Assembly: GCF_003334335.1 (NCBI RefSeq)
Contig: NZ_QOWQ01000193.1
Direction: 5' to 3' (one strand)
DNA length: 413 nucleotides
Source: Escherichia coli
Lineage (GTDB): Bacteria > Pseudomonadota > Gammaproteobacteria > Enterobacterales > Enterobacteriaceae
A program made the position numbers and the translations under genes. This document shows, one piece after another, positions 230-413 of the stretch. The notes under the pieces were generated by a model. It searched no databases. It was not told where the DNA came from and saw only the letters and a list, made by a program, of their open reading frames with translations. Position 1 is the first letter of the stretch. Every line of letters begins with the position of its first letter.

Positions 230-301
230 ATGCGTAAATTATGTGCTGTTATTCTGTCCGCAGTCGTCTGGCTGGTTGCCGCTGGTACGCCAGCGAGCGC
301 A
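230..301 (+). other. Predicted Sec signal peptide of Lom (cleavage by signal peptidase I after ASA, possibly one residue later)
   Basis: Basic n-region (MRK), hydrophobic core (LCAVILSAVVWLVAAG), and c-region T-P-A-S-A with small residues at -3/-1 (A-S-A) followed by AEHQS. Predicted by rule of thumb only; the exact cleavage site is uncertain by about one residue. Confidence 0.6.
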
Positions 302-413
302 GCAGAGCATCAGTCCACACTAAGCGCCGGGTATCTTCAGACCCATACTGATATGCCAGGCAGCGATGATCTGAACGGGATTAACGTGAAATACCGTTAT
401 GAGTTTACGGACA
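230..413 (+). CDS. lom: Lom/Ail-family outer-membrane beta-barrel protein (phage lambda Lom homologue; Ail/OmpX/PagC/Lom family); partial, 3' end lies outside the window
   Basis: ATG at 230 preceded by the SD; open frame to the window end (61 codons: MRKLCAVILSAVVWLVAAGTPASAAEHQSTLSAGYLQTHTDMPGSDDLNGINVKYRYEFTD). The N-terminal MRKL...ILSA, then EHQSTLSAGYL and GSD(D/N)LNGINVKYRYEFTD, match the lambda Lom N-terminus as I recall it. The hydrophobic N-terminus with an AXA cleavage motif fits a secreted outer-membrane protein. Confidence 0.9.
   Translation, partial: MRKLCAVILSAVVWLVAAGTPASAAEHQSTLSAGYLQTHTDMPGSDDLNGINVKYRYEFTD

Follow-up and report, generated by a model that had tools for sequence, protein, structure and literature searches.

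Positions 230–413 of the window (the whole 413-nucleotide stretch of DNA analysed here) are almost certainly the 5′ third of lom from prophage P-EibA, the gene for a precursor of the Ail/Lom/OmpX family that belongs to the E. coli lineage of Loms, varies at its tip and is mosaic in its construction. The window's DNA is 100% identical to positions 228–640 of AF151091.1, a record of prophage P-EibA from E. coli ECOR-9 in which these positions are annotated as the 3′ end of J and then lom. This bears out the original prediction of a variant allele from a lambdoid prophage as opposed to lambda itself. The label of a variant allele nonetheless understates how far the protein lies from lambda Lom, with which it is 41% identical over its whole length. 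The sequence is a known allele that has been deposited, is annotated as lom, is widespread and belongs to a well-known family. As a discovery it therefore carries little weight, the family, fold and genomic position of lom being textbook knowledge.

The window and its place in the prophage

The lom reading frame starts at the ATG at position 230 and stays open to the end of the window, encoding 61 residues; its coordinates, its frame and all 61 residues had been predicted correctly. We divide the window into the following features:

1–162, + strand: 3′ end of J, its last 53 codons and the TGA stop codon (160–162), from translation, the AF151091.1 annotation and NCBIfam lambda_TipJ
181–206, + strand: GC-rich, intrinsic-terminator-like hairpin GGGCACCA-GAAA-TGGTGCCT followed by a T-run, between J and lom, from a scan
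219–224, + strand: Shine-Dalgarno-like GAGAGG, 5 nt before the lom ATG, read from the sequence
230–301, + strand: lom codons 1–24, predicted Sec-type signal peptide (n-region MRK, h-region L4–A18, c-region GTPASA)
302–349, + strand: mature N-terminus and β-strand 1 (model residues 29–40, STLSAGYLQTHT), from AlphaFold and conservation
350–367, + strand: extracellular loop L1, tip of the β1–β2 hairpin (residues 41–46, DMPGSD), from the AlphaFold model and alignments
368–413, + strand: β-strand 2 (residues 47–58) and the start of periplasmic turn T1, within the block L(N/K)GINVKYRYE(F/L)TD

In the source record, lom continues beyond the window as an uninterrupted frame of 199 codons. The encoded 199-residue protein is the same as P-EibA Lom (GenBank AAF63231.1, UniRef Q9LA63, named ‘Lom’), from which the window does not differ, and the identical protein occurs on 94 contigs. 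An IMG/VR contig carries an identical copy of the window. AF151091.1 is said in the literature to go back to Sandt and Hill (2000, Infect Immun 68:2205). We encountered no evidence that contradicts the identification as lom. Small open reading frames of 23–37 amino acids in other frames and on either strand are contained in J or lom, and we dismissed them.

The 90% cluster to which the exact P-EibA Lom belongs has 1,910 members, and its representative and many others are named ‘C40 family peptidase, partial’ or ‘phage tail protein, partial’. These names look like an artefact of clustering and not like biology; because of this artefact, our homologue search lacked an identical representative.

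Upstream of lom, the J end matches the final positions of the lambda_TipJ profile (1110–1163 of 1163; E=8.5e-18). Because this C-terminus shares only 18 of 53 residues (34%) with the receptor-binding end of lambda J and is of a different type, its sequence suggests a receptor specificity other than lambda's LamB. At least four J C-terminal types adjoin lom genes, namely those of P-EibA, of lambda, of PhiR42_1 and of the two loci L090 and L092. The hairpin in the J–lom gap folds as RNA with −17.1 kcal/mol (z=−2.8). Across seven related phages its stem survives two replacements of a whole base pair (A-U to G-C and C-G to U-A), and lambda, L090 and L092 have in this position a hairpin that differs in sequence and is likewise accompanied by a T-run. 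These observations support a terminator-like element that is conserved after J. Searching the whole window against Rfam at E≤1 gave no match, and a promoter scan of the window returned no sigma-70-like site. With regard to lom as a candidate moron (an accessory gene of the late region transcribed on its own), what the window shows is the terminator-like hairpin ahead of the gene and no sigma-70-like site in the scan; expression in lysogens is reported for lambda lom (PMC11888456). The sequence GAGAGGT, which includes the Shine-Dalgarno-like hexamer, is shared by lambda, the six other phage loci compared and L090; in L092 it reads AGAGGT.

The wider setting of the gene can be viewed in strain JE86-ST05, whose Lom differs from that of P-EibA at 2 of 199 residues. 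There (L003, 15373–16836) the order is J, lom, a tail-fibre gene, a gene for a DUF4376 protein and then a YadA-like gene, where P-EibA has eibA. Next to this prophage lie the hya operon and a tRNA-Ser gene, and within the 24 kb that we examined its annotated genes for capsid, head-tail and tail proteins, J, lom, the tail fibre and the YadA-like protein are intact.

These intact genes bear on whether the lom frame could be a decayed, non-functional prophage remnant. E. coli prophages are often defective and some database relatives of Lom are partial or fused proteins, but we consider this reading hardly credible. The 199-codon frame is intact in the source record, the identical protein recurs on 94 contigs, and the JE86-ST05 prophage retains its structural genes. 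As detailed below, the protein also matches its family profile over the full length, possesses both the invariant alanine of the signal-peptidase site (A24) and the C-terminal GYRF, and is modelled as a confident barrel.

Family membership and predicted fold

P-EibA Lom matches Pfam Ail_Lom (PF06316) end to end (E=1.4e-131; residues 1–199 of the query against 1–199 of the 199-position model) and PHROG 108, ‘Lom outer membrane protein’ (E=5.5e-94). A sequence search of the PDB hits lambda Lom (9wso_C, 2e-43), Ail (3qra) and OmpX (1qj8). The NCBIfam models for OmpX (NF006917, 103.6 bits, equivalog cut-off 176) and Rck (NF011777, 107.6 bits, equivalog cut-off 258) are both hit below their curated cut-offs, and P-EibA Lom is therefore a homologue, not an equivalog, of OmpX and Rck.

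As in other Ail/Lom proteins, a signal peptide of the A-x-A type is predicted at the N-terminus, consisting of MRK, a 15-residue hydrophobic core and GTPASA. Among 29 homologues A24 is invariant and A22 nearly so, and the mature chains of Ail and OmpX begin opposite residues 26 and 29, respectively. Signal peptidase I is predicted to cleave after A-S-A, between A24 and A25. A lipoprotein anchored through Cys5 was rejected, as RKLC is no lipobox and the cysteine lies at the start of the h-region. At the other end, outside the window and within the source record, the protein finishes with GYRF and thus has the C-terminal aromatic residue of a β-signal; Y197 and F199 are invariant in the 29-sequence alignment and at least 90% conserved in an alignment of 75 sequences.

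With only 29 close homologues in the alignment, AlphaFold returned a model too poor to use (pLDDT 49). A second run used 75 aligned sequences, among them distant representatives from a search of 50%-identity representatives, and yielded an eight-stranded barrel with a pLDDT of 92.4, in keeping with the antiparallel barrel of four extracellular loops and three periplasmic turns that characterises the family. The strand boundaries rest on this second model because the first was poor:

Residues 2–17: helix (signal peptide)
Residues 29–40: strand 1
Residues 47–58: strand 2
Residues 63–81: strand 3
Residues 86–106: strand 4
Residues 111–135: strand 5
Residues 141–166: strand 6
Residues 172–181: strand 7
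Residues 188–198: strand 8

Residues 21–24 form a linker of low confidence. The best Foldseek matches of the model in the PDB are Ail (3qra and 3qrc) and OmpX (1qj9), with target-normalised TM-scores of 0.84–0.86, in a fold library (to April 2026) that excludes 9wso. In OmpX and Ail, the N- and C-termini are both periplasmic. Because of this topology, we place residues 41–46 in the extracellular loop L1.

From homology and the predicted structure, we infer that Lom would be made as a 199-residue precursor of an eight-stranded outer-membrane β-barrel of the Ail/Lom/OmpX family. The precursor may be exported by Sec and cleaved by signal peptidase I after ASA, and the mature protein may then enter the outer membrane by means of the signal GYRF at its C-terminus; going by publications on lambda Lom, it may act there in adhesion and in blocking phage adsorption. 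The parts of this protein encoded in the window would be the Sec signal peptide (1–24), strand 1 (29–40), L1 (41–46) and strand 2 (47–58).

Divergence from lambda and mosaic structure

We compared the protein with lambda Lom from NC_001416 (NP_040601.1). The part encoded in the window aligns over 69 columns, of which 27 (39%) are identical and which include two gaps of four residues each; the full-length proteins are identical at 84 of 207 (41%). Near-identity to this lambda allele is thus absent in either comparison. The original prediction that the N-terminus diverges from lambda is upheld and the divergence is much larger than was claimed; complete identity over the 61 residues, which would have spoken against it, is far from what the alignment gives. 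Because of these identities, P-EibA Lom represents a distinct Lom lineage and does not differ from lambda by a few substitutions. The differences extend throughout the N-terminal part. Counted from the alignments, the signal peptide retains 8 of 24 residues; AEHQSTLSAGYL matches lambda EGGHGTFTVGYF at 3 of 12 positions; and residues 37–47 show 4 identities in 19 columns, both 4-residue gaps included. The two gaps are symmetric, one on each side of the L1 tip. In the simplest reading of this alignment, the first hairpin of lambda Lom would be longer by four residue pairs.

A narrower difference had been proposed, namely an allele close to lambda in which the core motifs EHQSTLSAGYL and LNGINVKYRYEFTD are conserved and substitutions are confined to the h-region and LQTHTDMPGSDD. 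One motif behaves accordingly: LNGINVKYRYEFTD is identical to lambda LKGINVKYRYELTD at 12 of 14 positions. EHQSTLSAGYL by contrast shares only 3 of 11 residues with its lambda counterpart GGHGTFTVGYF, and with it the supporting detail of the proposal fails, because EHQSTLSAGYL is no lambda motif. The h-region and residues 37–47 are indeed variable segments among E. coli prophage alleles, and against these alleles the placement of the substitutions in the h-region and LQTHTDMPGSDD holds; against lambda the divergence is far wider, with eight indel residues in addition to the low identities above. A near-lambda allele thus has virtually no probability, and the alignment to lom of NC_001416 has already refuted it. 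The sequence taken for lambda was probably that of one of these E. coli prophage alleles.

Variation among the alleles of E. coli prophages has a definite pattern. Our variability set comprised 68 sequences, the query and 67 cluster representatives of 183–215 residues from a protein search, annotated almost all as E. coli, Shigella or Salmonella. Mean column entropy is 1.14 bits in the h-region and 0.91 bits in the c-region of the signal peptide, falls to 0.52 bits in residues 25–36, rises to 1.03 bits in residues 37–47, is lowest in residues 48–61 (0.21 bits) and amounts to 0.42 bits in residues 62–199. The variation of the lineage is thus concentrated at two sites, a loosely constrained signal-peptide core and the extracellular tip of the first hairpin. 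It had been suggested to map the substitutions on an OmpX/Ail structure to see whether they fall in extracellular loops. Within this segment, those of the mature protein do lie at the extracellular end of the β1–β2 hairpin; the cleaved signal peptide is equally variable.

The N-terminal types combine with different remainders. We refer to the signal peptide and L1 of the window as type A. The JLK-2012 and Stx2a_1447 alleles differ from P-EibA in having a type-B signal peptide and L1; these and PhiR42_1 begin MRK(L/V)(C/Y)AAILSAAICLAVSGAPAWASEHQSTLSAGYLHASTNVPGSDDLNGINVKYRYEFTD. The N-terminal 61 residues of 2G7b and of clusters P0011 (24,859 member sequences) and P0006 (2,821) are 97–98% identical to those of P-EibA Lom, and over residues 62–199 P0011 and P0006 are only 68–72% identical to it. 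P0003 shows the reverse arrangement, with a type-B N-terminus, yet 92% identity to P-EibA Lom over the remainder. Four 207-residue proteins (P0078 and P0097–99) join a lambda-like N-terminus with a long L1 to an E. coli-type remainder. In P0078 (L090, 1501–2124) and P0097 (L092, 1501–2124), the N-terminus is 41–43% and the remainder 67–73% identical to ours.

The DNA follows the same pattern. In a sliding window, identity between P-EibA and phage 2G7b is ~100% from the J end up to about lom nucleotide 330 and 53–73% beyond it. JLK-2012 and Stx2a_1447 are ~98% identical to P-EibA in the J end, ~70% in lom nucleotides 1–150 and 90–98% in nucleotides 121–210, and the sliding-window identity shifts sharply near the strand-2 block. 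Between type A and JLK-2012, Stx2a_1447 or PhiR42_1, the strand-2 codons are without any change, silent ones included. Even between P-EibA and lambda, window positions 371–412 (codons 48–61) use the same codon for 11 of the 12 residues that are identical (M and W left aside), compared with 31 of 69 elsewhere in lom (Fisher p=0.0036, for a block chosen post hoc). Mosaic junctions are usual in lambdoid genomes. The conservation of the strand-2 coding block at the nucleotide level fits a recombination junction between lom cassettes, and lom as a whole is mosaic, its N-terminal cassette, loop-2 region and C-terminal half being reassorted by recombination. In the source record, positions 787–1056 (lom nucleotides ~330–600, coding for strands 5–8, L3 and L4) are 53–73% identical in DNA to the common alleles, and this rarer C-terminal half of P-EibA Lom is shared by P0003 and P0065.

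The lineage of the window is the predominant one in E. coli prophages, and lambda is an outlier. Among 5,426 complete E. coli genomes, 4,266 have a match to window positions 230–413 (median copy number per genome, 2), and the best copy reaches at least 95% identity in 1,108 records. The equivalent N-terminal segment of lambda is found in 97 of the 5,426 genomes, always at 99% identity or more, and four of the five lambda-segment matches listed are laboratory or commercial strains.

Selection on the first hairpin and comparison with known Loms

Lambda Lom is described, in the accounts of Vica Pacheco 1997 given by PMC11888456 and PMC9836094, as an adhesin for buccal cells of humans. Its expression is reported to be constitutive from the prophage and to rise late in infection, and according to a study of adsorption-blocking barrels of the outer membrane, Lom expressed alone protects strongly against lambda-vir and not against T7 (PMC11888456). 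A literature search found no paper on PDB entry 9wso; for Lom–LamB exclusion, its one candidate concerns the spread of phages in biofilms.

Given this protection, the diversity of the N-terminal cassette might be maintained by selection on the exposed L1 tip, through host immunity or phage–phage competition, with the specificity of Lom tracking the receptor-binding end of the adjacent J, as opposed to arising from mere drift and recombination. We regard such selection as unlikely. Residues 37–47 are variable between conserved flanking strands, amino-acid-changing codons in L1 equal or exceed silent ones between allele types (3–4 versus 2–3 of 9 codons), and lambda Lom expressed alone blocks lambda-vir and not T7. 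These codon counts, however, are too few for a dN/dS test, and the core of the signal peptide, which is removed and hence beyond surface selection, is just as variable as the tip. This equal variability argues as much for relaxed constraint as for surface selection, and it fits relaxed constraint together with hitch-hiking. The relation to J is likewise divided. The long-L1 alleles of lambda, P0078 and P0097 follow J C-terminal types unlike that of the window, and the type in front of P0078 and P0097 is also unlike lambda's. On the other hand, N-termini of type A and of type B are found after one and the same J C-terminal type, type B also occurs after a different J, and the exact type-A N-terminus is found behind several J variants; the adjacency of J and lom would by itself yield an association. 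Our sample for this comparison, the best 80 IMG/VR loci, was biased, nearly all being of type A. Because it was also small and the two segments lie only ~70 bp apart, we claim no functional coupling of J and Lom.

A more elaborate scheme, which we offer as a speculation with a still slimmer chance of being correct, would make the first hairpin (the top of strand 1, L1 and the top of strand 2) an exchangeable specificity cassette, tuned in length and sequence to the receptor-binding end of J. The Lom of each prophage would then keep phages of the same kind from adsorbing, giving kin-specific exclusion at superinfection or at the time of lysis, and cassettes would be swapped by recombination at the strand-2 block, which is conserved in its nucleotides. 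The polymorphic segments and mosaic junctions mapped here can be used in tests of the proposed anti-adsorption role of Lom.

The lambda protein stands in poorly for the Loms that E. coli actually carries, as its N-terminal segment is present in 97 of 5,426 genomes and the allele family of the window matches in 4,266. Conclusions about the Lom loops drawn from lambda, including those from structure 9wso, may not transfer directly to the alleles of commensal or Shiga-toxin-producing E. coli. Chain C of 9wso is a solved structure of lambda Lom; the sequence of lambda Lom is present in this one entry, in two chains.

Set beside known systems, P-EibA Lom shares with lambda Lom its family and the place of its gene between J and the side-tail-fibre gene, and the strand-2 block GINVKYRYE-TD is conserved in both proteins, as are their C-terminal strands. 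Lambda Lom (206 amino acids) differs in having 8 extra residues in the first extracellular hairpin, where P-EibA Lom is shorter, and in the sequences of its signal peptide, strand 1 and loop, all of which are unlike those of P-EibA Lom. The Loms of E. coli lambdoid and Stx prophages (2G7b, VT1-Sakai and clusters P0011 and P0006) resemble P-EibA Lom more closely: they have 199 amino acids and their genes follow J, as in P-EibA, and the C-terminal half of P-EibA Lom is of a rarer type than theirs. Yersinia Ail (3QRA) and E. coli OmpX (1QJ8/1QJ9), with ~31% identity, share with Lom the eight-stranded barrel, which in Lom is predicted. In contrast to the prophage-borne lom, their genes are chromosomal, and their mature proteins are shorter, at 148–157 residues; the β3–β4 and β5–β6 hairpins of Lom are longer than those in Ail and OmpX.
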